DNA of 64,000 nt from a virus (taxonomy: Duplodnaviria; Heunggongvirae; Uroviricota; Caudoviricetes): positions 55,003 to 119,002 of IMG/VR virus record IMGVR_UViG_3300021479_000008; one strand, 5' to 3'. Below the pieces are notes generated by a model. That model ran no database searches, had not been told where the DNA came from, and saw only the letters and a list, made by a program, of their open reading frames with translations. Made by a program: the position numbers and the translations under genes. Below are positions 5,605 to 60,661 of this stretch, piece after piece (the first letter of the stretch is position 1; each line of letters begins with the position of its first letter).

Positions 5605-6758
5605 AAATTTATTGTTGTTCCTACTACACTTTTATCTTTAGCCAAGGAAAGAAACTCAGCACGAACTGTTGGGTTTGTTTTGAATATTCCGTCAAGACTG
5701 GATGTCTCTACAAAACTGTCTGGTTGATTTACTCCACGCATTATCATACAATAATGTCTTCCAGTGACTATACATCCAGCTCCTTTGCATCCCTTAAGAG
5801 TCATAAGAGCTTGCGTAACATCTTGAGTAAACCGTTCTTGTATTACAGGGCGGCGTGCTAATATAGTAACCAGCCGCGACAATTTCGATAACCCCAATAC
5901 ACGTCCACCTTTACTTTTTGATGGTATATACGCAACTGTTACGTGATAATCAACTGGAAGCAGGTGATGGGGACACATCGAAAAAGCACGTATATTTTTA
6001 CTCAAGATCATTTGACTATTTGTGCAAGGAAAACCTTCCATTAAAATATCTTTTACTTGACCGTCTGTATCTTTCACCCCCTCAAATATCTCAGCATACG
6101 CACGTGCCACTCGTTTGGGAGTTGCCTTAAAATTCTCATCTTTCAAATTCAACTTAAAAGCTTGCTTCAAACCTTTGAAAATATAATGTACTCCTTTTTC
6201 GATATTTCTAATACCAAAAAACTTTGCTTTGGCTTTGTCTTGCTCGGCATGTAACTTTCTGTGACAAACATTACACAAGACTGCCAAATTTTCAATAGCA
6301 TTATTACCTAATTCTGTAGATATGTTTACTCCATCTCTATGGTGAACATGGAACTCACGCCTATGTAAATCTTTTTTAGTAATACCACAGCGTTCACAAA
6401 CATATCCGTAATGTTTTAACGCCCTTTTTCTATATCCAGTATATTCTTCTCTTCGCATTTCGCGTTGCTTGGGATCCTTAAACTGGAGAATGGCGTCTTG
6501 CTTTCTTTTTTCCATTAACTGGCGAGCTTTTTTCTTACCGAATTGTTGTTCATAACTTTTTCCTCTTGTAGCTATTCCGCGAATATATTCTAAATACTCG
6601 CAATCAAGTTTAGCTCCGGGGAATTTTTTCTTATACTTTCTACTACTAATACCATGCATATATCTCAAATGGGTATTAGTAATACGTTCAAACTTTTTCT
6701 TACACAACTTACAACGAACATATTTCTTTAATTTTAGATTCTCTAAATTAACTAGCAT
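5601..6758 (-). CDS. folE: HNH endonuclease domain fused to GTP cyclohydrolase I (FolE)
   Basis: C-terminal half has FolE motifs (FSMCPHHLLPV, YIPSKS, GLSKLSRLV, ARRPVIQERFT). N-terminal ~190 aa carries an HNH motif (HVHHRDG ... NLAVLCNVCHRKLH). No internal Met precedes the FolE core, so this is probably a true fusion. Confidence 0.75.
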   Translation of the reverse strand: MLVNLENLKLKKYVRCKLCKKKFERITNTHLRYMHGISSRKYKKKFPGAKLDCEYLEYIRGIATRGKSYEQQFGKKKARQLMEKRKQDAILQFKDPKQREMRREEYTGYRKRALKHYGYVCERCGITKKDLHRREFHVHHRDGVNISTELGNNAIENLAVLCNVCHRKLHAEQDKAKAKFFGIRNIEKGVHYIFKGLKQAFKLNLKDENFKATPKRVARAYAEIFEGVKDTDGQVKDILMEGFPCTNSQMILSKNIRAFSMCPHHLLPVDYHVTVAYIPSKSKGGRVLGLSKLSRLVTILARRPVIQERFTQDVTQALMTLKGCKGAGCIVTGRHYCMIMRGVNQPDSFVETSSLDGIFKTNPTVRAEFLSLAKDKSVVGTTINL

Positions 6759-27465: not shown

Positions 27466-30400
27466 TTATACACCTTCTCGTCTAAATCCCGCACTCCCAT
27501 AACGACCTCGCGTTTCGTACACTTTCTGCAACATTGCTTCAAAACTTGTCCCGCTACTCGAACCAACACTCATACTTGTATAAAGACTTTGCAGGGCTTT
27601 AATGTTTGCAGCTTCCGATTCTAACTGGGATTGCCGTGCTGTGATAACTGCCATCTCAATATTCGCACGTTTATTCGTAAGATTAAACAACTGGTTGTGT
27701 ACTGTCAATGATGTACTATCTGTTGCTCCACCAAATATTGCAGACGACTTTATTTGTGGAGTAGCAACTGGTCCCATCATAAAACTATGAATCCCATTTA
27801 TCATACTAACGATTGGCTTCGGAAGGACCCATTCCCCTTTATGACCGAATATCAATCCAGTACGACTGATTTCTCCACCTAAAGCATACTGAGGAGCGTT
27901 TGGATACTGATTCAATCCACCTGGGGGTGTTCCTCCACCCGGCGGAGTACCCCCTCCTGTTGACGTTCCCCCACTCTGCAACCAACTCACCAACCCCGTC
28001 ATATCGTATCCCTCGACTTCTCCCTGAGATACGTACTGTGACGCATCGGCTGCTGCGGCCGAATACTGTTTATTCAAAATCATATTAGGAAAATTCGGAT
28101 CGAGTGAAGCTACATACTGAGCCGCACTAGCATCTGTGGCTGGAACCAGAGATAACCAATTCGTAGCCCCATACTGTCCGGTAATCGTACCGGGTGGAAC
28201 GTACTGAGATAATCCCAACATCTGCATCAACGCATAAAGTATTCCTGTTCCTGTTGGTAATGCTCCTCCGGCCTCCATACTCGTCAACGTCTGCATTATG
28301 CTACCAGTTGACAGTCCAGTTCCCAACGAAGATACTATCTGGGATAAGGCTGCGATCTGAGCGACTTGAACGTTGATCTGTGATTCTTGTGCTGAGAGTA
28401 ACTGATTCTCCAATCCTATTCTGGTAGTTGCTAGATTGAATATCTGTGTTTCGGCTTGAACCTTGTACTGCTCCATACTAATCTGTTCGTTGATCTGTTC
28501 CAACTGCATGTCACGCTGATAACGGAGGACACCGATCTCTTGTCCTTTCGTCATTGCGGTTGTACGTTGACGAGTCAATACTCCTTGCGTCAATACGTCG
28601 TACTCCGACTGGGCTTCCTGATTTATCAACTGCTGTCTCTGGTACTCAAGATTGATTAACGTCAACCCATCTTGAATCGCTTGTTGCTGTGCGGTATTAA
28701 GCTGATTACTCAACGTTGTAACGTACTGTTGCAGACTGGCAGTTAGGTACTGGTTGGCATTTGCTACTTCCTGTGCGTTGCCTTGCGCAGCGGAAGCGAA
28801 TTGCTGATACTTTTGAATGATCGTATCCAACGACTGGATGTATTCTTGGAATTGGATCGGAGCTGACAACTGGATAAGTGATTGATTCAGATTCTGCAAC
28901 AACACTGTTTGTTCGTTTACTAACTGTTGAATCTGAGAGTCGATCTGTTGTATTACTGCTTGAGCCTGGGATGGGGTATATCCCTTTTTAGCGCCACCTC
29001 CTTTACCACCTTTTTTACCAGCTCCACCTGATGACAACATCGCTATTGCTTGTTGTCTCTCTGCTCTTAGATCTGCAATGGCTTGCGTCAACGATATCGT
29101 ACCAGCTTGTAGATCGGAAACTATTGACTGCAACTGTGTTTGAATCTTGTGAATATCTTGCTGTAATTCTTTATTCTTGGAACCGAAAATACCGCCTAAC
29201 GTTGCACCGACTCCTAACCCAATCAATCCGCCAAACGGAACACCAAGCTTAGAACCAAATTCCGCACCGGCCATACCACCACTCAACGCACCACCAGCTC
29301 CCGACTTACCGGCGGTGAGTCCTTGAATTAGCCCCATTACTCCTTGAATCACACCTGATAAGTCGTCACCAAAATGCTTCAACCTTTCACTAGCCGATTT
29401 CGAAGAATTAAATAGCTCTGTAAAACTTTTACCCAATGAACTGAAAATATTGGATGGCCCTTCCCCAGTCTCTTGTTGCTTCTGCTTTATTGCATCCTGG
29501 CGTTGACCGAATACTCCAATATTCTGAGACGATTGCTGCATCTGCCCGAATAATTCTGATATCCCGGCTGCCGTTTTGCTTCTGGGAAAGACTCCGGCCA
29601 AACCACTTATAGATCCGAATATACCACTCAACTGCGTCGATACGTCTTTCAACTTAATCAATTCTTGCGTTAACTTCTGAATCGACAACATCGTTTGTTC
29701 TATATCTTCCTGTCGTTTTAACTCCGCGTCTGATCCTGGTGCGAATTTCTGTGCTTGTAAAGCTTGCAGGTGCTGTTGGGCTAACGAAGCTAACTGTTGT
29801 TTCGCACTGACTTCCAATCCAAACGATCTGCCTGTTATGTCTCCGGCTGCTATCTGTGCTTGTGTTTGTAACGGACGTGTTTGCAACTGGTATTGGGTTT
29901 GTAGTGCACGTAAACGTACCTCATCTTCAGACTGATCCAACAAAGCTAACTTCTTGTTTCTATCTTCTCTATTTTTATCTTGCTCGTCTTCTATCTTTTG
30001 TGTCTCGGCTCTATTCTTCTTTGCGACGGCTAGCTGATTATCCAATCCATTCTTAACTGCGAGATACTCAGCTATGATTAACGTTCTACGCTTGTCGAGA
30101 TAATCGTCAGCAGAAACCAGACCTTCATGGAAATCTTTCTCCAACAAAGCTTGACGTGTGGCGATACCTTCTTTAACTATCGCTGTTAGATGCTCTTCAT
30201 GACTACGCTTTGCTGTTTCTGTGTCTTGCTCAAGTTGCCGATCCGCAGCATAATTCTTTTCCTGAAACGCTGTGTTTTCTTTCTCACGTTTATCCTGAGC
30301 AGAAAGATTCTCTTTCTCAATCTTCTCTTGGGTAATCTTATGTGGTTCGGCTGTATCTTTTGCCGTCTTCGTTATGAAACCAATCTGGGCTTTTCTATCG

Positions 30401-32292
30401 TCTTCGATCTGCTTTAGTCTGGCAGCATGTTGCTCGGCATATAATTGCTTTTCACGGGTAACTTGCTGTTCAAGACTAATACGTCCGGCTTCGTAATCCT
30501 GTTTTGCAAGATCGATCTTACGTTTGTTGTACTCGACTTCAATATCGTACTTCAACTGGGCTGTTTCTTTAGCGATCTGCAACTCCAACTGTTGCTGTTG
30601 TTTTAACGCCGGAATGTTAAGATTCAAATCGTGTTGTGCACCTGCTGCTGGAGTTGGCTTTTGACCATACCTGAACTGGGCCGCGTCTAATACGTCTTTT
30701 CCGTACTGGATACGGGAATCATTTATCTCCTGTTCCATTGCTGTACGGATTTTCTTTACTTCATCGAACTTACCATGCATCACTGCATCGAGTATGTCTC
30801 CAGTATGACTTATCTTGATGGCAGCTTCGTTTACGTATTCTGCCATCGTAAGGAAACCAATGGACAACTGGGAAATAAAAGTACGGAATGGATCTGTTTT
30901 CTTTTGCAGCGAATCTAACGATGTTCCAACACCAAACAATGCCGATGCGAGACGGGAGTAAGCATCTATCTCTGCTCCGACTAGATGCAAAGTAGCAATA
31001 AACAACTTCAGGGCAGGAGTGACTACTTCTAACGTATCGCCGATCTTAGTTCCTATCCAAGTTACAAATGCTGACAACTTAGGTTGTATCTGAGTAATGA
31101 TTGACGATAATTCACTAACTACGTTCTTAAATCCTTCACTACGGGAAATGGAAACAGCCATATCGTCCATCAAATTCTTCTGGACGATTTGCCATTGCTT
31201 CAACAACTCTGGAAGCGTTGCGGCAGGAGTACCTATAGCTCTTTCTCTGGCTTCCAACGCAGCTAATACCTGATTGAACTGCATTGTGTTTCTAGTGTTA
31301 GCATCGGTTGCTGCACTTACTCCTTTCAGAGCGAGCTCTTGTCTAGTAAGGCCTGTGACCATTGCAAGAATCTGGGTACGGCCTGTTTTCGATGCTCGTT
31401 CCAAGGCGGTCATTGCTTGGGTAGCGTCTTTACCTTGTGCACGTGCAAGATCGACAGTTGCTTTTACCAATCTGGCTATATCGTCTGTACTAACCTTCAG
31501 ACCTTGCTGCATGTAGTTATTGGCAATACGATACAACTGAACGTCATCCGCCAATCCACGTGTTGCAGTACGTAACTTATTCAAGTACTCATCTGGAGAT
31601 ATTCCAGCCCGTGCTGTAAGTTTCTCAAACTGTTCTCGCAACTGAACTGCCGGACCAGTGGCTTCTACTAACGCTTCTCCCAAAGCGTGTATCTTCTCTC
31701 CAGCTTTACCAAGAAGCTCTATTACACCGGCACCGATTAATCCTCCGGCTAATACCCCACCTGCCACACTTCCAAGTACACCCCCTCCTGCCAGTCCACT
31801 GGCAAACCTTCCTATACCCGCCAGTAACCCGCCTTCATTTCCCGTTCTTGTTGTACCGGCTGCGCCCCGTGCTTGTATTTTTGTTTGTTGTTCTGACAAC
31901 CTGACTTGTTGCTGGAGAATGCGGAGACGTTCCTGTTCAAGACGTAAGTTACCAGTTGCTATGGTTTGCTGTTTCTTCGATTCGGCTGTTTCTAAGGCAC
32001 GTTGCTGGATGGTGGTTTTTATCGTTTCTTGATTTTTACGTTCCCACTGAGCCTTTGCGGCGTCAATGGCTTGCAACGTTCTCGCTTCTGCCGTTAACCG
32101 TTTCTGTTCTTCTATCTGCTTACGAGTGAGATCAATCTGCTCCTTTTGAATACTCTTCATCGATGTCGCATCAGCTTTGGCTTTCTGGTTTATAGCGTCA
32201 AGCTGACTACGCATCTGACGGACAGTGGCTTGCCACCCAGCGGTATCGATGACTGACTTTATCAGGAGCTTTTTGGTAATATCACTCGCCAT
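27466..32292 (-). CDS. tail tape measure protein (1608 aa)
   Basis: Long coiled-coil, Gln/Ala-rich protein with Gly-rich segments. Positioned after the chaperone pair and before the fiber. Confidence 0.75.
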   Translation of the reverse strand: MASDITKKLLIKSVIDTAGWQATVRQMRSQLDAINQKAKADATSMKSIQKEQIDLTRKQIEEQKRLTAEARTLQAIDAAKAQWERKNQETIKTTIQQRALETAESKKQQTIATGNLRLEQERLRILQQQVRLSEQQTKIQARGAAGTTRTGNEGGLLAGIGRFASGLAGGGVLGSVAGGVLAGGLIGAGVIELLGKAGEKIHALGEALVEATGPAVQLREQFEKLTARAGISPDEYLNKLRTATRGLADDVQLYRIANNYMQQGLKVSTDDIARLVKATVDLARAQGKDATQAMTALERASKTGRTQILAMVTGLTRQELALKGVSAATDANTRNTMQFNQVLAALEARERAIGTPAATLPELLKQWQIVQKNLMDDMAVSISRSEGFKNVVSELSSIITQIQPKLSAFVTWIGTKIGDTLEVVTPALKLFIATLHLVGAEIDAYSRLASALFGVGTSLDSLQKKTDPFRTFISQLSIGFLTMAEYVNEAAIKISHTGDILDAVMHGKFDEVKKIRTAMEQEINDSRIQYGKDVLDAAQFRYGQKPTPAAGAQHDLNLNIPALKQQQQLELQIAKETAQLKYDIEVEYNKRKIDLAKQDYEAGRISLEQQVTREKQLYAEQHAARLKQIEDDRKAQIGFITKTAKDTAEPHKITQEKIEKENLSAQDKREKENTAFQEKNYAADRQLEQDTETAKRSHEEHLTAIVKEGIATRQALLEKDFHEGLVSADDYLDKRRTLIIAEYLAVKNGLDNQLAVAKKNRAETQKIEDEQDKNREDRNKKLALLDQSEDEVRLRALQTQYQLQTRPLQTQAQIAAGDITGRSFGLEVSAKQQLASLAQQHLQALQAQKFAPGSDAELKRQEDIEQTMLSIQKLTQELIKLKDVSTQLSGIFGSISGLAGVFPRSKTAAGISELFGQMQQSSQNIGVFGQRQDAIKQKQQETGEGPSNIFSSLGKSFTELFNSSKSASERLKHFGDDLSGVIQGVMGLIQGLTAGKSGAGGALSGGMAGAEFGSKLGVPFGGLIGLGVGATLGGIFGSKNKELQQDIHKIQTQLQSIVSDLQAGTISLTQAIADLRAERQQAIAMLSSGGAGKKGGKGGGAKKGYTPSQAQAVIQQIDSQIQQLVNEQTVLLQNLNQSLIQLSAPIQFQEYIQSLDTIIQKYQQFASAAQGNAQEVANANQYLTASLQQYVTTLSNQLNTAQQQAIQDGLTLINLEYQRQQLINQEAQSEYDVLTQGVLTRQRTTAMTKGQEIGVLRYQRDMQLEQINEQISMEQYKVQAETQIFNLATTRIGLENQLLSAQESQINVQVAQIAALSQIVSSLGTGLSTGSIMQTLTSMEAGGALPTGTGILYALMQMLGLSQYVPPGTITGQYGATNWLSLVPATDASAAQYVASLDPNFPNMILNKQYSAAAADASQYVSQGEVEGYDMTGLVSWLQSGGTSTGGGTPPGGGTPPGGLNQYPNAPQYALGGEISRTGLIFGHKGEWVLPKPIVSMINGIHSFMMGPVATPQIKSSAIFGGATDSTSLTVHNQLFNLTNKRANIEMAVITARQSQLESEAANIKALQSLYTSMSVGSSSGTSFEAMLQKVYETRGRYGSAGFRREGV

Positions 32293-32294
32293 AG

Positions 32295-32834
32295 CTATCG
32301 CCTAAGTTTGTATGCATCACGTATCTGTTGGGTGACTGGATCGGATTCGTCAACCATCTTAATAGCTCCCATGTCGGGGAACGGAATATTCAGGCAAGCA
32401 AAATACCTCTTAGCTTCCTCGCCTGTAACCTGAGATAGAACAATTTCTCCTTTCCTCGCGACTAGTTTTCCACGTGCGTCGTAAATATCTTCCTTCGCGT
32501 AGAATTTCTCCGGCAAGTCGGCTGGAATGTGATCGTTTGGTCCGTAGATTCCATGTTTCTTTTTCTTCATTGTACCTTCTTCTTGTACTTCAGTTTCATC
32601 TTCTTCTGTCTCGTCTGTCTTGATCTTGTTCTTGAAATGGAAATGCTGTTCCTGTGATCTCCATGCCATCAATACTAATTCTGACGTTGTGAACTTTTTC
32701 CGTATCTCACGCAACGGCAACTGAAATGTCTCCACCAAGGAACAAGCTGCTGCTACACTTGGATACTTGGCCCTTCCAACATCGTCTTTGTCTTCAGGCC
32801 ACTTAGGGAGACGCGCGAGAAAAAATCCCGTATT
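32295..32834 (-). CDS. frameshift extension of the tail assembly chaperone (gpGT-like C-terminal part)
   Basis: The -1 frame opens at a TAG two codons upstream of the U_UUU_UUC slip site and runs to 32295. A fusion product of about 390 aa is predicted. Confidence 0.55.
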   Translation of the reverse strand, partial: NTGFFLARLPKWPEDKDDVGRAKYPSVAAACSLVETFQLPLREIRKKFTTSELVLMAWRSQEQHFHFKNKIKTDETEEDETEVQEEGTMKKKKHGIYGPNDHIPADLPEKFYAKEDIYDARGKLVARKGEIVLSQVTGEEAKRYFACLNIPFPDMGAIKMVDESDPVTQQIRDAYKLRR

Positions 32835-33469
32835 CTATTCACCTTCAACTGGGCTTCAACGATGTTCCATTGACGATTGGAACTGATATTGCTTTGTACC
32901 CACTTACGAGTAATTTCTGGATCATCTCCAAATGGATTCAAGACTATAACTACGGCATCGGCCAAGGCTCCCAACGATTCGTCTATCAACTCAAGAACGG
33001 CTTTGGCTTTATCCTCAAATTGCATATCCATACCCGCTTGAGTAAAAGCTTTCAACGATTGGGCTTTTTCGATCAACTTTTCCTTGAACTGGTGGTAGAA
33101 CTTCAATTCGGAATCTTGGGGAAGCTCACGAATGGTAAACGTCTTCGTTTCTTCATGTGTCTTACCGACGTTTACTGGCAACGTGAACGTATCGTATTCC
33201 TGGGATAAGAGTGCTTGGAGATCTTCGTGCGTGGGCGGTTTTTGTTCTTCTTCGATCTGAGTACGTATGCGCGTAAGCTCCGCTTGCATTACTTTCTCGT
33301 ACTCTTTTCTTACACCGTCAAGCTCTTCATCTTTCCATACCTTCAACAACATCTCACATTCTTTACGTACTTCGAGATACACCTCTCCCCGAATACGGTG
33401 CTTCTCAATCCATTCTGGTGTTTGTGTTACTGTGGCAGGTTGTACTTCGGTTTCTTTTACTTCTTCCAT
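32753..33469 (-). CDS. tail assembly chaperone (gpG-like)
   Basis: Acidic 238-aa protein between the tail tube gene and the tape measure gene. Ends 15 nt before a -1-frame ORF and has a slippery heptamer near its 3' end. Confidence 0.6.
   Translation of the reverse strand: MEEVKETEVQPATVTQTPEWIEKHRIRGEVYLEVRKECEMLLKVWKDEELDGVRKEYEKVMQAELTRIRTQIEEEQKPPTHEDLQALLSQEYDTFTLPVNVGKTHEETKTFTIRELPQDSELKFYHQFKEKLIEKAQSLKAFTQAGMDMQFEDKAKAVLELIDESLGALADAVVIVLNPFGDDPEITRKWVQSNISSNRQWNIVEAQLKVNRIRDFFSRVSLSGLKTKTMLEGPSIQV
32819..32825 (-). other. programmed -1 ribosomal frameshift slippery heptamer U_UUU_UUC
   Basis: Minus-sense GAU UUU UUC in the chaperone reading frame. Both P- and A-site codons re-pair as UUU in the -1 frame. 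Confidence 0.6.
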
Positions 33470-33506: not shown

Positions 33507-34277
33507 CTAGTTACAATGGTGATGTTTACTGCTGATTATCTCAAACACTGTACTGGAATAATGCTTCAACGCACGTTCAATTTTACGTTTGATATGTGGT
33601 AACAACCAACCTTTGACCTCTATAAACTTAAACTCATCTGGTAGATAGAAATCAGGTGTCCAAGTTTTAACAGGACGTACCCCAACATCAAAAGTGAACG
33701 CTTCGTACAACCATTTCTTTCCTTTCCTATCAAGATATTTAGCGTAGTTTACTTCGGACTTACAACGCATTGCTATACGACCGCACTTTCCATTATACCA
33801 AACCGTACGTGGGCCGCGCGGTCGTCCGACTGGGTCTTGCCCTTTCATCGTAGCTTTAAGTTTTGGAACAGTGACTTCGTGGTGGATTTTAAGACGCGCT
33901 GCACGACGTACTGGATCGGCCCAGGCTGTTTTCATTGCTGCAATACGCTTTGCACGTTTCTTTTTGTTCCTCCATGCTTTCTTTTGACCTTTGATCATTG
34001 CTTTTGTTACACGTTCTATGACGCCTGTTTCTCGACGAGTAGCTACGCGGCGTGCATAATTATCTTCCAATTCTTCCTTAGACGTGTTCTTGTAGTAATC
34101 ACTAACAGCTTTACGTCCTTTGGCAGATTTATTCCTACGTATCAACTTTCTAATAGCTTTAGCAGAAGCGTGTCGTGAAGCAGCGTGTGAGGCTGGATTA
34201 TGACCACGGGCGTAATCTTTTCCTTGGTTCACTACAGCCTCACACTCGGGTTTGCATTTACACGTTTTCATTGTCAC
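33507..34277 (-). CDS. putative homing endonuclease (PD-(D/E)XK-like) inserted in the tail module
   Basis: C-terminal TPDFYLPDEFKFIEVKGW has a D ... E.K nuclease-like motif. Basic Arg/Lys-rich N-terminus. Promoter copy 6 directly upstream. Confidence 0.4.
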   Translation of the reverse strand: MTMKTCKCKPECEAVVNQGKDYARGHNPASHAASRHASAKAIRKLIRRNKSAKGRKAVSDYYKNTSKEELEDNYARRVATRRETGVIERVTKAMIKGQKKAWRNKKKRAKRIAAMKTAWADPVRRAARLKIHHEVTVPKLKATMKGQDPVGRPRGPRTVWYNGKCGRIAMRCKSEVNYAKYLDRKGKKWLYEAFTFDVGVRPVKTWTPDFYLPDEFKFIEVKGWLLPHIKRKIERALKHYSSTVFEIISSKHHHCN

Positions 34278-34316: not shown

Positions 34317-35366
34317 TTAAATACCAACCGCCTCGTTGCTACGCATGTAATACCCCTTGTAGGCTACCACAGTTTCACCATCAAGCGGGTCGTCGAATGC
34401 TAGTGCGTTGAACTGTGCATCCAACTGACTTCCATGCTGGTCTGTAGTACCAGAGTTCTCAATCGTCCAGTCCGCAGCAATGTCTTTGTTCTGGGCAATT
34501 GACAGGTGGGGGTAATAGATCACCAACTGAGCAGTGTCAACTGTGTTCGATTGGAACAAACCTGACCACTCAGAGATAAACGTACCACCTTCTCTGGCTA
34601 GGAATCCTTTGATCGGAATAACTTTGAACTGTGCTCCAGCGGCAAAGGCTCCTGTCTGTGTGTTCAAGTTTGGACCACTTGCTGACGATGGGAACGATCC
34701 ACCACCAACGAATGGCTGGTCTAGTGTCAACGTCAACCCGTTTATACCGACTACCCTTGCGACGTAATCCGTATTCTTTCTAAAGTAGTCAATGTCCGTT
34801 ACTGCGTTCTGGTATACAGGAACACCGGCATCCGACAATGCTGATCCGAATGTTCCAACTACATAGTCGATGTCCATAGCGATGTAACTGCCTACATAGA
34901 TCTGGACTGTGGCTGGGATACGGTCTAACGTTAACGTTGGTGCTGTGTTCTGCGGTGCATTCCAGGCTACCGGGCTGCCTGGGTTGTAGACTGTGGCGAT
35001 TGCAAATGGAGAACCCGATGCTGACAACGGTCCAATGTTTCCACCGGCCAAACCAGTGGCTGCCAGAATGTTGAATACGTTGGAACCTGTTGCCAACTTC
35101 CACTGCATTCTTCCGTACTCGTTGAACTGGCACTCGAACGATTCTGCTACCTGACCGCGGTACTGTGCACGAATGGCTCCACGATAACCAGACGTTACTT
35201 GACCGATCTTCGATCCGACGGTCAGCTTAAAGTTTTTAATCCACCCAAGGTCTGCCATACCAAACGGTGGATAATACGAATCGAATGGACCCTGTGTCAT
35301 ATCAACGATGGTTGGCCCAACTAACGTACTGGCAATGGCCGATCCTTGGGCATAGTTATACGGCAT
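34317..35366 (-). CDS. major tail (tube) protein
   Basis: 349-aa Gly/Ala/Thr-rich protein upstream of the chaperone pair and preceded by a 324-nt leader. No sheath-sized gene is present. Confidence 0.45.
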   Translation of the reverse strand: MPYNYAQGSAIASTLVGPTIVDMTQGPFDSYYPPFGMADLGWIKNFKLTVGSKIGQVTSGYRGAIRAQYRGQVAESFECQFNEYGRMQWKLATGSNVFNILAATGLAGGNIGPLSASGSPFAIATVYNPGSPVAWNAPQNTAPTLTLDRIPATVQIYVGSYIAMDIDYVVGTFGSALSDAGVPVYQNAVTDIDYFRKNTDYVARVVGINGLTLTLDQPFVGGGSFPSSASGPNLNTQTGAFAAGAQFKVIPIKGFLAREGGTFISEWSGLFQSNTVDTAQLVIYYPHLSIAQNKDIAADWTIENSGTTDQHGSQLDAQFNALAFDDPLDGETVVAYKGYYMRSNEAVGI

Positions 35367-35690
35367 GAAGTAAGCGCGCCATCCAGCACCTACAACTAAT
35401 TTATTTTTTCTGAACCATTTGTTACTCTTCCATACTGGAAGGAGCTAGTCATTTCTGCTAGCTTCTTACGGTTGTCATTCCCGTAATGAGCGGACTATTG
35501 CATCACCCGTAGGTGTCTTCTCGCTTAGTCTCTCAGCCTGCTTTCGCTTGGCCCTCGTTGGCATCTCAGCGTCCGAGTCAATCAGAGAAGATTTAACCAG
35601 CCCCGCAGTTAAGGCTGTTGTAAACTTTTTGGAAAACTCATTTCTTTCTCCTTTTTACCGCCTTAGGCGGCTGGGATTAGCGTTGCATCC

Positions 35691-36239
35691 CTACGACGCA
35701 ATCGCATCCGACATATCTACCAAACGGGTCATCGCCGACCCATAGATGACTCCAGTTGCTTTGTCGAGCTTGGAATGAAACTCCAGTGGCTTCCATTCGA
35801 TTACCTCCGGAGGATTCAAAGGAGTACCAGTCCAATTATCGTTATTGTCTTCCGCCCAACTCAGCTTGGGAGCATATCCTGGAGCCGACGCATAGAGTAA
35901 CTCGCCCTTCATAGCTTCCAACGTTCTGAATCTCGTCCCACGACTCGCCTGACGTATCCCTTGTACCAGCTCTTGTCCTTTATTGATCCAGACCCATTGA
36001 ACTTGGCGCAGCAAAATCGGTATATATGTCGAATAACCGTCTCTTCCGATTGGAACATCTCCCACGTTAAGGAGATAAAAAGCGTCGAACTTTACGTTCT
36101 TGTTTGGCCAGTCTTGTGCGTCCAACATTCCGGCGACTACGTTACCAGCTTTCAGTCCCAATACAGTACGCTTCGTTACCGCATTGATACGTGCCCGCCA
36201 GTACTGGTAGAAGCTGTCCACTGCATCAACACTTGGCAT
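35691..36239 (-). CDS. hypothetical virion protein
   Basis: 182 aa in the head-tail region. Confidence 0.4.
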   Translation of the reverse strand: MPSVDAVDSFYQYWRARINAVTKRTVLGLKAGNVVAGMLDAQDWPNKNVKFDAFYLLNVGDVPIGRDGYSTYIPILLRQVQWVWINKGQELVQGIRQASRGTRFRTLEAMKGELLYASAPGYAPKLSWAEDNNDNWTGTPLNPPEVIEWKPLEFHSKLDKATGVIYGSAMTRLVDMSDAIAS

Positions 36240-36247
36240 TTATTTCC

Positions 36248-36730
36248 TCACATCTGTCGTGTCATGTAGAGATTTTTCAAGATACTATACTTCTCCGGTC
36301 CAAAGAACAACTGCAACTTCTCTTTCCATTCTTCCGACGGTGGTTCCATGAGCAGACCATAGAATAAAAATCCCAGCCAGAAGCCTTCACTGACTTTGAG
36401 ATTCTTCCAACTGTTACAATTCATTGTGAATGTAGCTCCGAAGAAATCCTTTACGTCTCTCATGTCTGCGTCTGACATAATCGCATCTTTGAAATTGGAA
36501 CGATGAAGGTCTGCTCCTTTCCACGTGGTAAACATCACGTTACTGCCTTCAAAGTTGGCGTAACGAAGATTGCAATTCACGAACTTACTGTATGGCAATC
36601 TGGCAGAACGGAAGTCTGCTCGCTCAAGATCCATTCCGGTGAAATCGCAATCGTGTAGTGACATGCTACGAAAATCCTTCTTACGTTCCTTACAGATCTT
36701 TTCCAACTGTTCCCGCGTAAATTGTCCCAT
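36248..36730 (-). CDS. pentapeptide repeat protein
   Basis: Tandem A(D/N)LxxAxL-type pentapeptides (DCDFTGMDLERADFRSARLPYSKFVNCNLRYANFEGSNV...GADLHRSNFKDAIMSDADMRD). Confidence 0.65.
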   Translation of the reverse strand: MGQFTREQLEKICKERKKDFRSMSLHDCDFTGMDLERADFRSARLPYSKFVNCNLRYANFEGSNVMFTTWKGADLHRSNFKDAIMSDADMRDVKDFFGATFTMNCNSWKNLKVSEGFWLGFLFYGLLMEPPSEEWKEKLQLFFGPEKYSILKNLYMTRQM

Positions 36731-36739
36731 ACCTACCTC

Positions 36740-37237
36740 TTATCCAAGAACCAACGTTTTAGTGTCATCTACGTCGTCAAGAATTGGATCCCCATCTTCA
36801 ATGACCTGGAAAGAATCTCGTAACTGACCCGTATCGACTGGAGCAGAGTCTTGAAGTAACTGCTTGCACAACTTCATGGCTCGTACTCCAGCCTTTTGTA
36901 TTTCTGTAGTAATATCTTTCGGGTTAGTACTCGAAAACTTTGCTCTTTCTAATTCTTGACTTAACGCATCCCAAAAATCGTTCTCGTGAATAGACACAAA
37001 ACCGAATGGGGCCTGTATGCTTAACCAGACTTGTTCTCCACTTGGATTAGTACCCAAAACGGTCTTGGGACCAGGCTTTGTCTGTCGTGCCGAACCCCAC
37101 TCCCACACTTCTGCATAGGCGGCTGCATCTCCAGTAGCAGCGACACCGACGGATATCTCCTTGTCGTGTTCTGCAAACTCGAGCAGGAACTCGTCAAGTC
37201 TTTCTATCGACAACGTACCTGATATCGTCGGTATCAT
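36740..37237 (-). CDS. hypothetical virion protein
   Basis: 165 aa in the head-tail joining region. Confidence 0.4.
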   Translation of the reverse strand: MIPTISGTLSIERLDEFLLEFAEHDKEISVGVAATGDAAAYAEVWEWGSARQTKPGPKTVLGTNPSGEQVWLSIQAPFGFVSIHENDFWDALSQELERAKFSSTNPKDITTEIQKAGVRAMKLCKQLLQDSAPVDTGQLRDSFQVIEDGDPILDDVDDTKTLVLG

Positions 37238-37661: not shown

Positions 37662-38006
37662 TTAGACTCTGCCCCGAAAGGCTGGGTTGAATTGGGTACT
37701 GCTACGCTTGAATGATTCGGTTACGGGGGATAGATCTGAGACAGGTACTGTTCTCCGTTCTACCATTCCCATCGGTTTACGAATGCTTACGGTTGCGGTT
37801 TCGTCGTTCATGGCCAACACAGTACAGACTGTTACTTCACTGGTGGATGGTCCTGTACGACTTGTGTTTCTACGTATCAAAGCTTGATCTTGTACTTTGA
37901 TACTTCTCGGTACCTGAATTGTTGGACTACGACTATCGACATATTCTCGAAGATTCATGTGTTCCTCCTTACTAAAAATTAGTAGCGGTGTGTTCTCCAT
38001 TAGCAC
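37662..38006 (-). CDS. hypothetical protein
   Basis: 114 aa. Confidence 0.35.
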   Translation of the reverse strand: MLMENTPLLIFSKEEHMNLREYVDSRSPTIQVPRSIKVQDQALIRRNTSRTGPSTSEVTVCTVLAMNDETATVSIRKPMGMVERRTVPVSDLSPVTESFKRSSTQFNPAFRGRV

Positions 38007-38280
38007 GTTCTCGAATCATAGCTGATTGTCTTCCACCTGAACTAGCCGGATTACCTTTATAATATGTATGCGTAATCATACCATGTTCTTCTTTTGAACC
38101 TGACGAATGATGATACTTAAATCCCCGATCTGCCATCCCCTTATGAAGACTATTCAACTGTTCTTTCTCTGAACTATTCCATTGTGGCTTGCGACCACTA
38201 CCGGGTCCACCTGCCTGCAATGACTGGATTACTTCCTGACTGTCTTCTACGTCTTGCATGTAATCGCGAATGGTAGACAT
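37972..38280 (-). CDS. hypothetical protein with GGPGSGR motif
   Basis: LQAGGPGSGRKPQW. The same motif is present in 42507..42836. Confidence 0.35.
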   Translation of the reverse strand: MSTIRDYMQDVEDSQEVIQSLQAGGPGSGRKPQWNSSEKEQLNSLHKGMADRGFKYHHSSGSKEEHGMITHTYYKGNPASSGGRQSAMIRERANGEHTATNF

Positions 38281-38854: not shown

Positions 38855-39739
38855 TCAATAACACATCACAGTCTTAAACGGATCACACAGGCGCTCGATG
38901 TACGTATCAATCAAATCTGGAGTAAAACTGACGTTGGCTGTCCCGCCCAACGAAATCGAACGCAATGCAGTAACTCCACCACCACGGGCTAGATAGTTCT
39001 TAACCAAACCGGCACAAGCACGTTTTATCGGTGCTGGCATAAAAAGTGGATGAAAACCCGACGAGTAATTCGCGACGATCTCCTTATACTGAGCTAAATA
39101 TAACCCGGCTGGTATCCAAATTTCCCCAGTCTGTACATCGAAGTCTGACTGCGTAATGTCTATGTTCGTCCAGTTCGGTGGACCACCGAAGAAAGCGGCT
39201 ACCTGGAGAATGTTTGCACCGTAGTTTAAGTCGGGGTAAATACCTGCATTGTCACGACGACCGTAACTGTATCTTCCACTCAATCCAATGATTGGGCTTA
39301 TCGTCGATCCCGGTACTCCACTTATCGGTGTCGTATTGGGAGTAAAACCTGTGTAGAAGTAATTCGTAAACAACAGGTCTTTTCCCTCGGCTGGGAAACC
39401 TTTCGGTGTCGGGGGAATATAGTTAGCAGAGGCCATCAACTGCTGCTGCACAGATACGGGAATTGCAACGAGAGGCTTGAACGTCAATCGGACTATGTTT
39501 CGAGAAACGGCTTGCATCAAAAGACGTTCAAAATACGTACTGTATACCAACGATCCCTGTCCCGTTCCGTCTACCCGACCACAGTGTACATCTATCAGTA
39601 CCGATGCCGCGTCTATCAACGTAAGGATCGCCGGCTGACGGTTTGCGTCGGGTAGGTCGTACATTCGCAGCTCGTTCGGCAAAATAAATCTCGGTACAAA
39701 AGAACCTCTTGCCGGGAGCGGTTGTGGAGTAGAACTCAT
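38855..39739 (-). CDS. hypothetical virion protein (possible decoration/head completion)
   Basis: 294 aa, directly downstream of the capsid gene. Confidence 0.4.
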   Translation of the reverse strand: MSSTPQPLPARGSFVPRFILPNELRMYDLPDANRQPAILTLIDAASVLIDVHCGRVDGTGQGSLVYSTYFERLLMQAVSRNIVRLTFKPLVAIPVSVQQQLMASANYIPPTPKGFPAEGKDLLFTNYFYTGFTPNTTPISGVPGSTISPIIGLSGRYSYGRRDNAGIYPDLNYGANILQVAAFFGGPPNWTNIDITQSDFDVQTGEIWIPAGLYLAQYKEIVANYSSGFHPLFMPAPIKRACAGLVKNYLARGGGVTALRSISLGGTANVSFTPDLIDTYIERLCDPFKTVMCY

Positions 39740-42839: not shown

Positions 42840-44897
42840 TTAAATCCTCTTGTTCCCTGGGCCGGGCCGGAAGCGTCTCAACGGCTGCCCTGTTTGCAAT
42901 ACCCGATCTTTACCGGCTTTGTCATCTAGTGTTCCATCTGGTTTACGCTTGTAAATGCCACGTACTGCATTCTTCCTGTTTCGCTGATCGGCATTCGGTC
43001 CCAACGTACCACGCTTATTTATTGTTTTTTCCAGAAGACTGTCACCCGCGTCATCGTTGTAAAACTTCCGTAACTGCATTTTCTCGTCTAACGCAGTGAC
43101 TGGATCGGGAAGTACCTCGTCGGCTAGTTTATCTTCCTTTAACTTTTCAAAATATTCCTGTAATTCTGTTGATATGGTATCGAGAATTCCAGGCTGTTGG
43201 GCTTCCATTTGATCGGGAAGCGTATCTGGTGAAGGCAACAAACCTAGCTGGTAATACATTTCGATCATCTCAGGGGAAAGGTTGGCAACATCTTGGGCAC
43301 TGAACTTCATACTTCCCGTACCCAACGATCCCGGTGAAGATGCTCCACCTCCCGTTCTCATACCTCCACTTGGTGCTCCCATTCCCATGCCACCGCCTGA
43401 GCTACTGGCACTTCCTGTCATCTTGGCTTGAGCTTCTACCAACAGTAACTGCTTCTGCATCATGGTCAAACGTCCCCAAGGACCTGGCAACGGTGGTAGG
43501 TTATTCTTCTTTCTTACTTCATCACTCGTGATGGCGTCCATCGTATACAGACGCTGGTCGATAACCGTTCTGGTAATAGGATCAGGATCATCAAGGTTTT
43601 GGAACTCAAATTCCAGGTCTTTCCAGTTTAAGTCGTCATGCAACCACTGCCGGGTAAATGCTGCTTGAAACCTCGTCGCGACTGGGACTACTGCGTTCTT
43701 CCAGTCAGAGTCCGCCATGACTTGCGCTGTCGCTTTGTTTTGATGGTCGTCCAGATTTAATGCTTGTGGGGAAAGGTCGAAGGCGGCGGCTATGATGACG
43801 ATTAGGAATTTCTGCCAGTCAAGCATGAAGTCTTCTATCGTGACTGGCTTGATATCGATTGTCTTTGGTGCTTTGACTCCGGCTACCATTGCCAGCTTCG
43901 ACTGGCCTTCCAATTCGTTCATTACTTGTCTACGCAATTGCTGGATATGGGCAGTATTGATTGTCTGTTCCCACCAGAGCCATGTCTTATGTATCTGATC
44001 GGCTCCGGCTTTCGCGGACATATCTTGCACACCAAGAAACGCGTTAACGCTGTTGAATCCAACTTCCATCCTTCCCAGACCGAAAGGAGTGGCGGTACGG
44101 ATGTTGTCACGAATGACTAATAGCTCATCAGAAAGGAATGTAACTATACCACGCTCGCCTTTCAGTCCCGTCATCTGGGCATAACGTGGTCTGTCGGGAG
44201 CTGACTCGGTCCAATCCAAAAACATACGAATCGTACTTCCGTCGACTGCCCACATCTTGGTTGGACGTTTGAAATACGGAGTCGTTCTATGCTCGATGAC
44301 TCCCATCCCGACTAACAGGAAATCTTCCAGTGCCATCTCCAACAGATCACGGAAACTTTCTCCGGTATTATTCGGACGCTTCAACGTTTCTGTGGCGATA
44401 CGTATACGCTTCTCACGGTCGGGATCTTTATCGTCGACGAATTCTTTGGTGGGTTTGATCTGCCACTTAAACTGCAGTACGGAATTCTTTACCAGATTCA
44501 TCGCCCGACGAGGAATCGGTGTTTCGGAGAATCGACGAATGCTATAGGGAGTATTTTTGAGTACAGGGACGTTCAACCGATGTAAACTTTCGGGCATGTA
44601 CGGGTATGCCCACGACTGCCTATCGACGATATCGAATTGCTTGGCGTCTCGCGCGGCTTCGATTTCCGCGACTTGGCGGGATTTTACCATTGCCCATTCG
44701 TTACGGGGAGTGCTGAGTAATTCCTGGGCGTGGGTGACTTGCAGAAGCTTTATGACTTCTCTGGTGACGAGATACTTTGCCGTCTTGGCTTTGAGGTCTG
44801 CCCTCCAAGACGTGAGGAACTTCCAAAGCATCTTCAAAAGGTTCATGACAGTATTCCGACGATGCCTCATACTAGCAAACTGCAACGTCACTGTCAA
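42840..44897 (-). CDS. portal protein
   Basis: 685-aa protein at the head of the virion module, preceded by a terminator and a sigma70 promoter. A likely alternative start is the ATG near 44846. Confidence 0.55.
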   Translation of the reverse strand: MTVTLQFASMRHRRNTVMNLLKMLWKFLTSWRADLKAKTAKYLVTREVIKLLQVTHAQELLSTPRNEWAMVKSRQVAEIEAARDAKQFDIVDRQSWAYPYMPESLHRLNVPVLKNTPYSIRRFSETPIPRRAMNLVKNSVLQFKWQIKPTKEFVDDKDPDREKRIRIATETLKRPNNTGESFRDLLEMALEDFLLVGMGVIEHRTTPYFKRPTKMWAVDGSTIRMFLDWTESAPDRPRYAQMTGLKGERGIVTFLSDELLVIRDNIRTATPFGLGRMEVGFNSVNAFLGVQDMSAKAGADQIHKTWLWWEQTINTAHIQQLRRQVMNELEGQSKLAMVAGVKAPKTIDIKPVTIEDFMLDWQKFLIVIIAAAFDLSPQALNLDDHQNKATAQVMADSDWKNAVVPVATRFQAAFTRQWLHDDLNWKDLEFEFQNLDDPDPITRTVIDQRLYTMDAITSDEVRKKNNLPPLPGPWGRLTMMQKQLLLVEAQAKMTGSASSSGGGMGMGAPSGGMRTGGGASSPGSLGTGSMKFSAQDVANLSPEMIEMYYQLGLLPSPDTLPDQMEAQQPGILDTISTELQEYFEKLKEDKLADEVLPDPVTALDEKMQLRKFYNDDAGDSLLEKTINKRGTLGPNADQRNRKNAVRGIYKRKPDGTLDDKAGKDRVLQTGQPLRRFRPGPGNKRI
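44868..44896 (-). promoter_or_regulatory. sigma70-type promoter TTGACA-17-TAGTAT (minus strand)
   Basis: Perfect -35 element, 17-nt spacer and a near-consensus -10, just upstream of the ATG near 44846. Two CCGACTTACCTA direct repeats lie upstream, at about 44917..44928 and 44949..44960. Confidence 0.55.
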
Positions 44898-45077: not shown

Positions 45078-46064
45078 TTACTTATTTTCAGCTGGCAATT
45101 GCAACAACAATCCAGACCCGCCTGCCTGTACACTTGGTACTTGTCCGTTCCACTTCCAAATCATATCGTGTTGATTGTTCAATCTGTACCACGAAATCAA
45201 CCTGTCATCGATAGAAGATGACTTGATACGATTGGCTTCGGCTTCTCCTTTCGCACGAGCAACCATGGAATTACCTTGTCCTTCAGCTTCGGCTACAGCC
45301 TTCTTAGCGTCGGCTTCGGCTTGGGCGACTTCATTCTGTTTCTGTAACGCCAGCTGTGTGGCTTGTACCTTCATGTTGATTGACTGGATCACTGCTTCGG
45401 GCGGTCTTGGTGATCCGATGATTCCGAACTGCTCGATTTTTACTCCGTACTGGTCTAGCTTTTCATCTAAACATTTCTCACTGTCTTTCAACCACGGTCC
45501 ATTATCTCCCATGATCTGTTCGATGTTGTACGAACCGGCTGTATCGTTAATACACGTCCTGGCAACGGAGTGAAGAAATCCATTGTTGAATGCCGACAGA
45601 TCGTCGCTGCGGAACTTGATGTAGAAGGCAGGGACCTTATCCGCCGTTAGCGTGTACGAAAGATTAAAGTCTCCACGTACTGTCATGGAATCTTTCGTAT
45701 TGAAAGTAATCTCTTCGTTCACTGGATTACCTTCCTTCGTATCCGCTGTCCACGTTACCGATTGCATGTACGTAGGATATTCGATAATCGACGTGGAATA
45801 AGGATTATACCAAACACGTCCCGTCTTCAACGTTACATCCTGTACTCCACGTTGTGTTCCACTTTGATCTACTTCTATCCCAACCATTCCCGGACCAATT
45901 CTGGTGGTACATACTATAAACAGAATCAATACCACAACAGCACATATCCCAAGCCCAATGATCTGCAAAGTCCTACTCATGTTTATCTCCTTTTTCGGTT
46001 GACTCATTTGATTCGGATAAGTCGATTGTCTCGGTACCTTCACTTTTAACCCTCCTTTGTACAA
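45078..46064 (-). CDS. SPFH/band-7 (stomatin/prohibitin/HflK-like) domain protein with N-terminal transmembrane segment
   Basis: TM helix (LQIIGLGICAVVVLILFIV), then IGPGMVGIEV...TKDSMTVRGDFNLSYTL and an Ala/Glu-rich coiled-coil tail. Confidence 0.65.
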   Translation of the reverse strand: MYKGGLKVKVPRQSTYPNQMSQPKKEINMSRTLQIIGLGICAVVVLILFIVCTTRIGPGMVGIEVDQSGTQRGVQDVTLKTGRVWYNPYSTSIIEYPTYMQSVTWTADTKEGNPVNEEITFNTKDSMTVRGDFNLSYTLTADKVPAFYIKFRSDDLSAFNNGFLHSVARTCINDTAGSYNIEQIMGDNGPWLKDSEKCLDEKLDQYGVKIEQFGIIGSPRPPEAVIQSINMKVQATQLALQKQNEVAQAEADAKKAVAEAEGQGNSMVARAKGEAEANRIKSSSIDDRLISWYRLNNQHDMIWKWNGQVPSVQAGGSGLLLQLPAENK

Positions 46065-59395: not shown

Positions 59396-60661
59396 CTATT
59401 TCCCATCGACCACTTTCCGGAATGCCAATCCACTGCTTTTCGCGATGATACGGACTCGCGAATGCTGTTCAAGTTCTCCGGAAGCGATCATGTGGGCAAT
59501 CGGCTGCACGATCATCTTTTCGATGGTACGCCGCAAGTGGCGGGCACCATATCTTACATCCGTTCCTTCTTTCAACAACATATCTGTGGCAAGGTCTGTA
59601 CACTGGATGCGGATATCGTGTGCGATCAAACGCTGCTCAACATTACTAATTTCCATCTGCGTTATCTTCTGCAACGTGTCATGCAAAAGAGGATTAAATA
59701 CCTGTACCTCGTCAAGCCGGTTAAAGAATTCTGGGGTGAATTTCTGTCTCGCGGCTTCTATCGAGGCACGACGCATTTTCTTCTGTACATCCGGTGCCAA
59801 CTTTCCTTTCGCTTCTTTCAGGATATTCATTATGTCTTCCGAGCCAAGGTTTGACGTCATGATTACAACGGTATGGCTCAGATCGACGTCTTGATCGTCT
59901 ATACGAAGCGAGGCTCTGTCGAGTATTCCCATAAGCAACTTGTAGAGCAATACAGTTGCTTTCTCGATTTCGTCCAGCAGGAGAATACCCAACGGTTTTC
60001 CCGTGTTAGTGGAAAGGGAAATATTTTCGTCGGTAAACAACCTGTCCCCGAATTTGCGGAAGGAAAACATCGTTGCCATTTCTCCACAGTTGAATTTCAC
60101 CATCTTCGTACGACTGGAGAAATAGTACTCGGCTAATGCTTCTGCAATTCTCGTCTTGCCCACTCCGGTCGGACCGAGAAGCAGGTAAATGCCTCTCGGC
60201 TTGTACGGGTCACAGATATCGGCATCGATCTTGGCCACTAGATTGGCAAACGATTCCACGGCGTCGTCTTGACCGACTACACGATGCTTGAGAAATCGGA
60301 TTACCTTTTCTATTTTCTCCGACCGTTTCTCCGGATGAAGATGGATTGTCTTTCCGGTGAAGCTTACTGCTGGCAGTTCTTTTGGCAACGACGATGTCTT
60401 GGGTGCCAACTTTGCTTCTTTCTGCCGATACAGAATGTAATGACGAGCAAACTTCCGTTTTGGAGTTAGTCCACGATAGTGATCACGCATACACGACGGA
60501 GCAGTACAGAAATAGTTCTCTATCTTCCGCGGTATGCGTGGAATCTTATGGCGCTTACGACGTGGTTTGTTTTTCTTCATCTTCCCGGCTCCAGAAACCA
60601 ATACTTCATCAACGCTAAATATCCGTGATGAAGCTCTGGAGCGAATTTTCTCAACAACCAA
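59396..60661 (-). CDS. Clp-family AAA+ ATPase (ClpX/ClpA D2-like) chaperone
   Basis: VVGQDDAV, Walker A LLLGPTGVGKT, Walker B LLLDEIEKA, sensor and arginine-finger region GARHLRR. The basic N-terminal extension may not be translated (TTG start in the track; an ATG lies at about 60580). Confidence 0.6.
   Translation of the reverse strand: MVVEKIRSRASSRIFSVDEVLVSGAGKMKKNKPRRKRHKIPRIPRKIENYFCTAPSCMRDHYRGLTPKRKFARHYILYRQKEAKLAPKTSSLPKELPAVSFTGKTIHLHPEKRSEKIEKVIRFLKHRVVGQDDAVESFANLVAKIDADICDPYKPRGIYLLLGPTGVGKTRIAEALAEYYFSSRTKMVKFNCGEMATMFSFRKFGDRLFTDENISLSTNTGKPLGILLLDEIEKATVLLYKLLMGILDRASLRIDDQDVDLSHTVVIMTSNLGSEDIMNILKEAKGKLAPDVQKKMRRASIEAARQKFTPEFFNRLDEVQVFNPLLHDTLQKITQMEISNVEQRLIAHDIRIQCTDLATDMLLKEGTDVRYGARHLRRTIEKMIVQPIAHMIASGELEQHSRVRIIAKSSGLAFRKVVDGK
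59793..59804. repeat. GGTGCCAACTTT motif copy (in Clp ATPase gene)
   Basis: Exact. Confidence 0.8.
60402..60413. repeat. GGTGCCAACTTT motif copy (in Clp ATPase gene)
   Basis: Exact. Confidence 0.8.

Follow-up and report, generated by a model that had tools for sequence, protein, structure and literature searches.

Pentapeptide-repeat proteins (PRPs) are abundant, and a function is known for very few of them; the known cases are mostly DNA mimics that act on topoisomerases. Phage PRPs are routinely annotated as gyrase inhibitors by analogy. The solenoids of Qnr, MfpA and AlbG have roughly 180–220 residues and about 8–10 coils per monomer, and the dimer forms a rod corresponding to about 20–30 bp of DNA (sizes taken in part from PDB chain lengths, 183–217 aa). 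The subject of the present study is a PRP that is encoded among the virion genes of an uncultured tailed phage. Its gene is located at 36248..36730 on the minus strand of a 64,000-nucleotide stretch of DNA (Caudoviricetes; IMG/VR record IMGVR_UViG_3300021479_000008, positions 55,003 to 119,002), which is called the window below. DNA-mimicking PRPs have an outward surface of negative character and dimerise via their C-terminal helices (PMC10886550). [quoted passage not shown] They wrap the VgrG-PAAR tip 'like a seat belt', via salt bridges and hydrophobic patches (PMC13373197, PMC13584744). The properties of the window PRP, i.e. its neutral solenoid with one conserved face, its private C-terminal domain and its fixed position between two neck/tail genes, lead us to propose tentatively that, in a clade of uncultured long-tailed phages, it is a lineage-specific factor for the assembly of neck and tail or a minor protein of the virion.

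The coordinates of the PRP gene coincide exactly with an open reading frame (ORF) that starts with the ATG at 36730, stops with the TGA at 36248–36250 and encodes 160 aa. The product scored 56.3 bits against the Pfam family PF00805, Pentapeptide (E = 2.1e-15; curated cut-off 20.2), 43.3 bits against PF13599 (cut-off 38) and 29 bits against PF13576 (cut-off 27). From residue 18 to about residue 100, approximately 16 pentapeptides with the pattern A(D/N)(L/F)xx follow each other in register. The pentapeptide repeats noticed at this position are real and well past chance. An AlphaFold2 (AF2) model, for which an alignment of 26 natural homologues was used, had a mean pLDDT of 83.8, with values of 92–96 over the repeats. 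This predicted structure has a short strand for every five residues and is flanked by an N-terminal helix and by C-terminal helices. When the model was compared with the PDB by Foldseek, nearly all matches were pentapeptide-repeat proteins (Rfr, Np275, MfpA, QnrB1, AlbG and HetL). The best superposition was obtained with TL15, a 15-kDa thylakoid-lumen protein (3n90; TM 0.60, rmsd 1.6 Å, 107 columns), and the best PDB profile matches were 2j8k and designed solenoids. Being above the Pfam gathering threshold, the PRP is classified by its sequence as a member of the pentapeptide-repeat superfamily (PF00805 clan, Rfr fold), and its solenoid is predicted to be a right-handed quadrilateral β-helix with four pentapeptides per coil. 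The N-terminal helix (residues 6–15; 36686..36715, minus strand), which was assigned by DSSP on the model and from the homologue alignment, caps the solenoid and contains a conserved TREQLExI. It is followed by approximately 16–17 pentapeptides (residues 18–102; 36425..36679, minus strand), which according to the repeat register and the conservation per face make up four coils. In these features the window PRP resembles the short Rfr-fold PRPs TL15 of Arabidopsis (3n90), Np275/Np276 of Nostoc (2j8i/2j8k) and Rfr32 of Cyanothece (2f3l), which have the same A(D/N)(L/F)xx repeats, right-handed quadrilateral β-helix, N-terminal capping helix and small size. These proteins are cellular, however, have no known role in virus assembly and are without the 60-residue aromatic-rich C-terminal domain of the window PRP.

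The original prediction, made from the letters of the DNA and a list of its ORFs, had proposed a right-handed quadrilateral β-helix and had labelled the protein a Qnr/MfpA-like DNA mimic. The fold was borne out by the Pfam matches, the AF2 model and Foldseek, but the label was not. The PRP reached only 28.3 bits with the NCBIfam Qnr model NF033086 (cut-off 240), 15.2 bits with the MfpA model (cut-off 360) and 15–29 bits with the individual QnrA, QnrB, QnrC, QnrD, QnrS and QnrVC models (cut-offs 425–500). With approximately four coils its solenoid is about half as long as that of a Qnr or MfpA monomer, and no Qnr-type loop A or B interrupts the repeat register in the model. The pI of the 26 close homologues ranged from 6.7 to 8.8 and the net charge of the whole protein from -1 to +5 in 40 family members. 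The 48 outward positions of the repeats held a mean of 9.7 acidic and 9.7 basic residues, which gives a net charge of 0 (range -4 to +4). Judged from the sequence, the exposed surface of the PRP thus appears to be neutral, and not acidic as that of DNA mimics is. The window PRP and Qnr, MfpA, AlbG and McbG have the fold class in common as well as helices after the solenoid, which could serve dimerisation. Apart from the differences in coil number, surface charge, loops and family scores, the PRP is encoded in a virion neck operon, unlike these proteins, and not beside a toxin, resistance or gyrase-related gene.

The conservation of each face of the solenoid was determined in 40 family sequences. 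Face 1, which consists of the pentapeptides starting at residues 18, 38, 58, 78 and 98, showed a mean top-residue frequency of 0.75 and a mean entropy of 1.1 bits, against 0.49–0.59 and 1.6–2.1 bits for the other three faces. The conserved outward residues on this face are R21, D39, R41, E61, G62, N79, K81 and D82, and the face continues straight into an invariant cap and the C-terminal domain. Such a one-sided, charge-patterned conserved face suggests a specific protein-binding site.

The family-specific C-terminal domain comprises residues 103–160 (36251..36424, minus strand). In the model it has a short turn at 105–108 and three main helices at 115–126, 133–143 and 145–156, with pLDDT values of 59–82. 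The strongest conservation in the alignment was not observed in the repeats but in the cap D95-F-F-G-x-T-x-T-M-x-C105, whose invariant residues (D95-FG-T-T-C105) directly precede the domain, and in the last approximately 60 residues, which read GFWYGFLFYGLLMEPP...GxERYxxLKNLYxxRQ. These contain the Trp/aromatic-rich helix GFWxGFLFYGLLM and the motif GxERYxxLxxLYxxR. The possibility that the hydrophobic helix is a transmembrane segment was considered and rejected, as it is too short and too polar to span a membrane (for almost every member the KD19 maximum is <1.6).

When 5.8 billion proteins were searched, 26 full-length homologues of ~160–173 aa with 50–69% identity were found, all of them metagenomic, and in distant orthologues of 26–37% identity the architecture was unchanged. 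A profile of the C-terminal domain found just 35 matches among 1.84 billion cluster representatives. In these 35 the domain was always C-terminal, in proteins of ~140–170 aa, and in all 10 members inspected it was preceded by pentapeptide repeats. In one cluster representative of 235 aa (P0068) a family 2 glycosyltransferase domain is joined to the final PRP repeats plus the C-terminal domain of the family; this could be a real fusion or a chimera of the assembly or the gene call. The alignment of the C-terminal domain gave no sequence match in a PDB profile search, and no full-length match to the PRP was present among the predicted viral structures of BFVD (TM ≤0.56). The family was absent from 185,579 bacterial and archaeal species (GTDB, one genome each). 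Since these genomes gave only generic repeat similarity without the C-terminal domain, they provided neither a prophage copy nor a clue to the host. In 50,697 phage records tblastn of the PRP likewise gave only matches at the level of the repeats, covering at most 71% of the query. The small uncharacterised phage PRPs with which it was compared (PHROGs 15350, 923, 12514 and 7713; Barbavirus, Kayvirus, P22-like orf232 and BFVD entries) are like the window PRP in their repeats only, as no match spans its C-terminal domain. Those examined belong to early or accessory blocks; the Barbavirus PRP, for example, is encoded in a block of small hypothetical genes and not among virion genes. By all these searches the family is a small one that appears to be restricted to phages, with a private C-terminal domain. 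At the same time it is a marker of a sizeable clade of uncultured long-tailed phages of ~120–130 kb of which GenBank holds no isolate. The PRP fold and PRPs in phages are known; apparently undocumented are PRPs that have a private domain at the C-terminus and are encoded, in an uncultured phage clade, by a core gene fixed between tail-completion and terminator genes.

All genes of the PRP region are on the minus strand, and their order in the direction of transcription is portal, g548, g343, g294, four small genes, g165, PRP, g182, g349, endo256, g238/g147, g1608 and g1605, the last of which encodes 1605 aa. The portal protein (42840..44897) was recognized by Pfam (Phage_portal, E = 1e-26) and by PHROG portal families. 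The product of g343 is presumed to be the major capsid protein from its position and conservation, and g294 (38855..39739) encodes a head-tail adaptor-like protein (PHROG 442, 'head-tail adaptor', E = 4e-8). Directly upstream of the PRP gene, g165 (36740..37237) encodes an HK97-gp10-like tail-completion/neck protein. It scored 21.3 bits with PF04883, HK97-gp10_like, just under the cut-off of 21.4, and 11 of its 19 orthologues matched this family (best E = 3.5e-6). Directly downstream is g182 (35691..36239), for which PHROG, Pfam and PDB profile searches gave no match and which was identified as the tail terminator gene solely by structure prediction and Foldseek. The top PDB matches of its AF2 model (pLDDT 82.8) were T5 p142 (9ilv, 8bcp), the DT57C neck, lambda gpU, T4 gp15 and the Mu terminator. 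PDB profile searches with the alignments of the terminator, the gp10-like protein, the tube protein, the capsid protein and the PRP C-terminal domain yielded nothing useful. Further downstream, g238 and the -1 frame g147 (32295..33469) have the G/GT arrangement of a pair of tail assembly chaperones. A slippery heptamer T_TTT_TTC is present at 32819–32825 on the minus strand, in phase and within the window of overlap between the two frames, and relatives of the window phage have overlapping chaperone ORF pairs as well. As predicted from these sequences, the heptamer is the programmed -1 frameshift signal that joins g238 to g147 as in classical G/GT tail chaperones. The following gene, g1608 (27466..32292; 1608 aa), encodes a putative tape measure protein on account of its A/Q/L/G-rich composition, its position and the conserved synteny. 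The gene order terminator, g349, chaperones implies that g349 encodes the putative tail tube protein and that the phage has a long tail; a sheath gene was not seen between the genes for the terminator and the chaperones.

The PRP gene is closely packed between its neighbours, as it starts 9 nt past the stop codon of g165 and stops 8 nt before the start of g182. The context of its start in the mRNA is TAA-GAGGUAGGU-AUG, with a GAGG ribosome-binding site 5 nt 5' of the start codon, and the GAGGA ribosome-binding site of g182 overlaps the PRP stop codon. At both junctions a ribosome-binding site overlaps a stop codon. The corresponding junctions in relatives are gene overlaps of 1–4 nt, and no promoter- or terminator-like site was found around the PRP gene. 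As judged from the predicted signals, this indicates translational coupling of the PRP gene with both its neighbours, the tail-completion and the tail-terminator gene. The tail tube gene is the second gene downstream of it, and the genes on its two sides encode the proteins by which the proximal tail end is completed.

The conservation of this position was studied in contigs of relatives that were retrieved in three independent ways, via the PRP, via the tube protein and via the capsid protein. A PRP orthologue was present between g165 and g182 in all of the approximately 20 contigs (35–131 kb) that have the g165/g182/g349 module and extend over the slot. Six of these had been found via the PRP and about 13 independently via the tube or capsid protein, at tube identities from 75% down to 38%. 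The slot was kept even in contigs L002, L006, L020 and L022, in which extra or mobile ORFs are inserted on either side of the PRP gene. The identity to the window copy decreased in step for the three neighbours, from 64 to 26% for the PRP, from 65 to 32% for g165 and from 57 to 26% for g182, and the mean pairwise identities in 19 genomes were 0.37, 0.39 and 0.37 respectively. The distance matrix of the PRP correlated with those of g165 (r = 0.80), g182 (r = 0.76) and g349 (r = 0.82), which among themselves gave r values of 0.84–0.87. Its GC3 of 0.516 is close to that of the terminator gene (0.519) and the tube gene (0.506), whereas the mobile endonuclease gene and the small gene g102 have values of 0.354 and 0.311. 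Three contigs (L048, L055 and L050) have the portal, capsid and adaptor genes in common with the window (30–45% capsid identity) but a different tail module and no PRP; L048 appears to encode a sheath-like protein. As the PRP is absent where the same head genes carry other tails, it travels with the neck-tail module and not with the head. The gene has none of the marks of a phage moron or accessory cassette (own promoter or terminator, deviant composition, patchy distribution) and shows the fixed slot, the coupling and the co-divergence with flanking structural genes that are expected of a core neck/tail gene. On this comparative evidence the PRP gene behaves as a core gene of the clade, not as a moron.

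The closest functional analogy is offered by TvpB and TagAB, which are PRP solenoids that aid the assembly of a phage-tail-like machine and whose genes lie between the structural genes that they serve. Their partners VgrG, PAAR and DUF2169 are at the distal spike, whereas the neighbours of the window PRP are neck and terminator genes of the proximal tail end. The C-terminal domains are unrelated, and no relation in sequence was found apart from the repeats. The genes that accompany the Tvp/Tag proteins (DUF2169 TvpA, DUF4150/PAAR and VgrG) were not present, as Pfam scans of the genes flanking the PRP gave no T6SS family. The likeness to the T6SS proteins is therefore one of analogy, not membership. 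Moreover, the function of TvpB has been demonstrated experimentally and that of the window PRP is inferred.

In the proposal made here, which may well be right but to which we hold tentatively, the PRP would be a lineage-specific protein involved in the morphogenesis of the head-tail joint in a clade of uncultured siphovirus-type phages of ~120–130 kb. It is predicted to form a rigid four-coil β-helix with a conserved, charge-patterned face that leads into the aromatic-rich helical C-terminal domain. It would be made from the late structural operon together with the gp10-like tail-completion protein and the tail terminator, and the translational coupling to these two implies that it may be produced in stoichiometry with them. 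Via face 1 and the C-terminal domain the PRP would bind a component of the neck or of the tail end/connector. Subsequently it could remain in the particle as a minor collar or neck subunit, or it could be a non-packaged chaperone that readies the component for tail termination and head joining and then leaves. The location in a head-tail structural module, which had been part of the original prediction, agrees with the portal, head-tail adaptor, gp10-like, tail terminator, frameshifted chaperone and tape measure genes found around the PRP. Its alternative suggestion of a structural or assembly β-helical component is in line with the best-supported reading in view of the slot, the coupling and the co-divergence.

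Several points weigh against this proposal. Both the binding of a neck or tail protein and the presence in the virion rest on inference and not on direct evidence. We know of no solved phage neck structure that contains a PRP, and no paper was found on a PRP in the context of a phage virion, neck, tail or terminator. The C-terminal domain, to which part of the binding is ascribed, was modelled with moderate confidence only (pLDDT 59–82), and the charged ladder on face 1 could partly consist of intramolecular salt bridges. Phages with the same head genes do without the PRP, which is evidently not a universal neck part, and a fixed position and co-divergence are to be expected of any long-resident late gene too. 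Finally, a megablast search with the 16-kb structural segment and tblastn searches with the portal, capsid and tube proteins found nothing in the 50,697 phage records. There is no cultured relative, and as a result no published proteome or structure to borrow from.

Another explanation is that the gene is a long-resident late accessory gene whose product has no part in the virion but acts, for example, in host takeover, anti-defence or superinfection exclusion by binding a host protein via the conserved face. In phages PRPs often occur as accessory genes of uncharacterised function; in some relatives the flanks of the PRP gene are hot spots at which extra ORFs have inserted; phages that share the head genes lack the PRP; and the conserved face implies a partner but not which one. 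For such a gene a patchy distribution would normally be expected, whereas the PRP occupies the same slot in every contig with the neck-tail module, down to ~26–30% identity. Nor does it have a promoter or terminator of its own or a foreign composition, its rate of divergence equals that of its neighbours with correlated distances, no PADLOC defence model matched, and the family is missing from the genomes of the 185,579 species. This explanation is unlikely, although it has to be taken seriously. A more specific version of the assembly proposal is slightly more doubtful still: the PRP may itself be part of the neck structure of the virion, docked on the tail-completion and terminator rings via the conserved face and the C-terminal domain, either in a collar or, being of the size of DNA, inside the channel. 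If this were true, it would to our knowledge be the first pentapeptide-repeat protein demonstrated as a building block of a phage particle, and the fold would have been recruited independently for a second time by a tail-like machine for injection, the first case being the Tvp proteins of the T6SS.

That the PRP is an anti-host DNA mimic, ejected or acting late, whose β-helix imitates B-DNA and so blocks or protects gyrase, a topoisomerase, a restriction enzyme or a nuclease, is improbable. The fold class is that of Qnr, MfpA, AlbG and McbG, and the C-terminal helices could dimerise the protein as in MfpA and Qnr (PMC10886550), by which a dimer of eight coils would arise. Against this stand the four coils of the monomer, the family scores far below the cut-offs (28.3 of 240 bits for Qnr, 15.2 of 360 for MfpA), the absence of Qnr loops from the model, the neutral outward residues with the family pI of 6.7–8.8, and conservation that is confined to one face instead of extending around the helix. 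The cultured-phage PRPs examined lie in early or accessory regions and not in virion modules. A product of the late operon cannot shield incoming DNA unless it is packaged. Packaged anti-restriction proteins do exist elsewhere (DarA/B of P1 and IPI of T4), but ejection proteins are not usually encoded between tail-completion and terminator genes. No finding of this analysis supports an ejected anti-host role. Least probable appears a function as lumenal plug or surrogate for the DNA end, in which the β-helix would fill the channel of the tail-completion and terminator rings until the head is joined, or would gate the end of the DNA. The cross-section of a PRP solenoid approximates that of duplex DNA (PMC10886550), the gene is located between those of the two proteins that form the proximal tail end, and in DotG/IcmE, to which a match was obtained (PDB 7muc), a PRP solenoid is built into a translocation channel. 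The argument is purely geometric, however, the surface is neutral, and one-sided conservation is unlike what a symmetric channel would ask of its occupant.

With its fixed slot, neutral surface, conserved face and private domain, the PRP family is a counter-example to the reflexive annotation of phage PRPs as gyrase inhibitors. It is also a candidate for the use of this fold as a protein scaffold when virions are assembled, in parallel with the accessory PRPs of the T6SS. The practical value will be modest until a partner or a location in the virion has been shown.

The tail tube gene downstream of the terminator gene is split. Exon 1 (35612..35641, minus strand) encodes MSFPKSLQQP and is preceded by a strong AAAGGAG ribosome-binding site. 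It is followed by an insert of 197 nt without an ORF (35415..35611, minus strand), which begins with an in-frame TAA, and by exon 2 (34317..35414, minus strand), the highly conserved part of g349, the gene of the putative major tail (tube) protein, in which the reading frame goes on with FRKNKLVVGAG. Because of the insert ORF callers shorten the tube gene to 349 aa. The tube orthologues of L002, L004 and L006 are without it and read MSFPKSLQQPFRKNKLVVGAG... uninterrupted. Homologous inserts are present in L001 (11140–11367), L014 (6735–6952) and L036 (~2560–2770). The 5' exon ends with U and the insert with G, and P1 is formed by the end of the exon and an internal guide, with a U.G wobble between the two. 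Exon end and guide covary in three alleles, those of the window, L001 and L014, with the pairs CAGCCU/GGGCUG, CAGCCAU/GUGGCUG and CUUCCGU/GCGGAAG, and compensatory double changes were found in 21 of the 41 predicted pairs in an alignment of four sequences. The order of the helices and the core AGACUAA...AUAGUCC fit the P3-P7-P8 core of group I introns. The insert did not reach the threshold of Rfam RF00028, but its predicted pairings point to a group I-type intron. A 16-mer of its core, GASAGACTAAGCGAGA, was found in more than 119 IMG/VR contigs (e.g. L083 and L084; loci L080–L198), with further core motifs in 111 of the approximately 121 occurrences. Some of these contigs have group I introns recognized by Rfam nearby. 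Judged by its motifs, this set seems to be a large family of small introns missed by RF00028.

Directly downstream of the split tube gene is endo256 (33507..34277, minus strand), which encodes an endonuclease-like protein of 256 aa whose C-terminus matches PHROG 'Holliday junction resolvase/endonuclease' families. This is the mobile gene with the GC3 of 0.354 mentioned above, in an environment of about 0.5. Its homologues change position between contigs: in L002, L005 and L006 they follow the capsid gene, in L014 the homologue precedes the tube gene, and in L025 it comes after the tube gene. Probably endo256 is a free-standing homing endonuclease, and possibly it cooperates with the ORF-less intron.

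Some other genes of the structural region deserve mention. In the neck block g102 (37972–38280, minus strand), with its GC3 of 0.311, overlaps g114 and has among the related contigs a counterpart only in an identical one; probably it was inserted recently. An SPFH/Band 7 protein (45078–46064, minus strand; PHROG 200 'lipoprotein', E = 2e-61) is encoded immediately upstream of the portal gene. The portal ORF of contig L039 (1217–7042) has 1941 aa, and its match to the 685-aa portal protein of the window is divided over four segments, suggesting inteins or insertions of another kind. Between the capsid and adaptor genes of this contig two ORFs of ~1000 aa are inserted.

Outside the structural region, an FtsK/SpoIIIE-type translocase with a phage zinc-finger (56207–57682, minus strand) and a ClpX/HslU-like AAA+ ATPase (59396–60661, minus strand) are encoded near a gene with a weak match to the terminase large subunit (60831–62672; Terminase_6N 19.5 bits, cut-off 22). 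The minus strand also encodes a family A DNA polymerase of 980 aa with an N-terminal domain of the uracil-DNA-glycosylase superfamily (1526–4468), and an ORF (5601–6758) in which a FolE (GTP cyclohydrolase I) domain is preceded by an HNH endonuclease domain. The latter may be a fused or inserted mobile element. FolE of phages usually acts in 7-deazaguanine DNA-modification pathways, and if it does so here, this would be the anti-restriction device of the phage.

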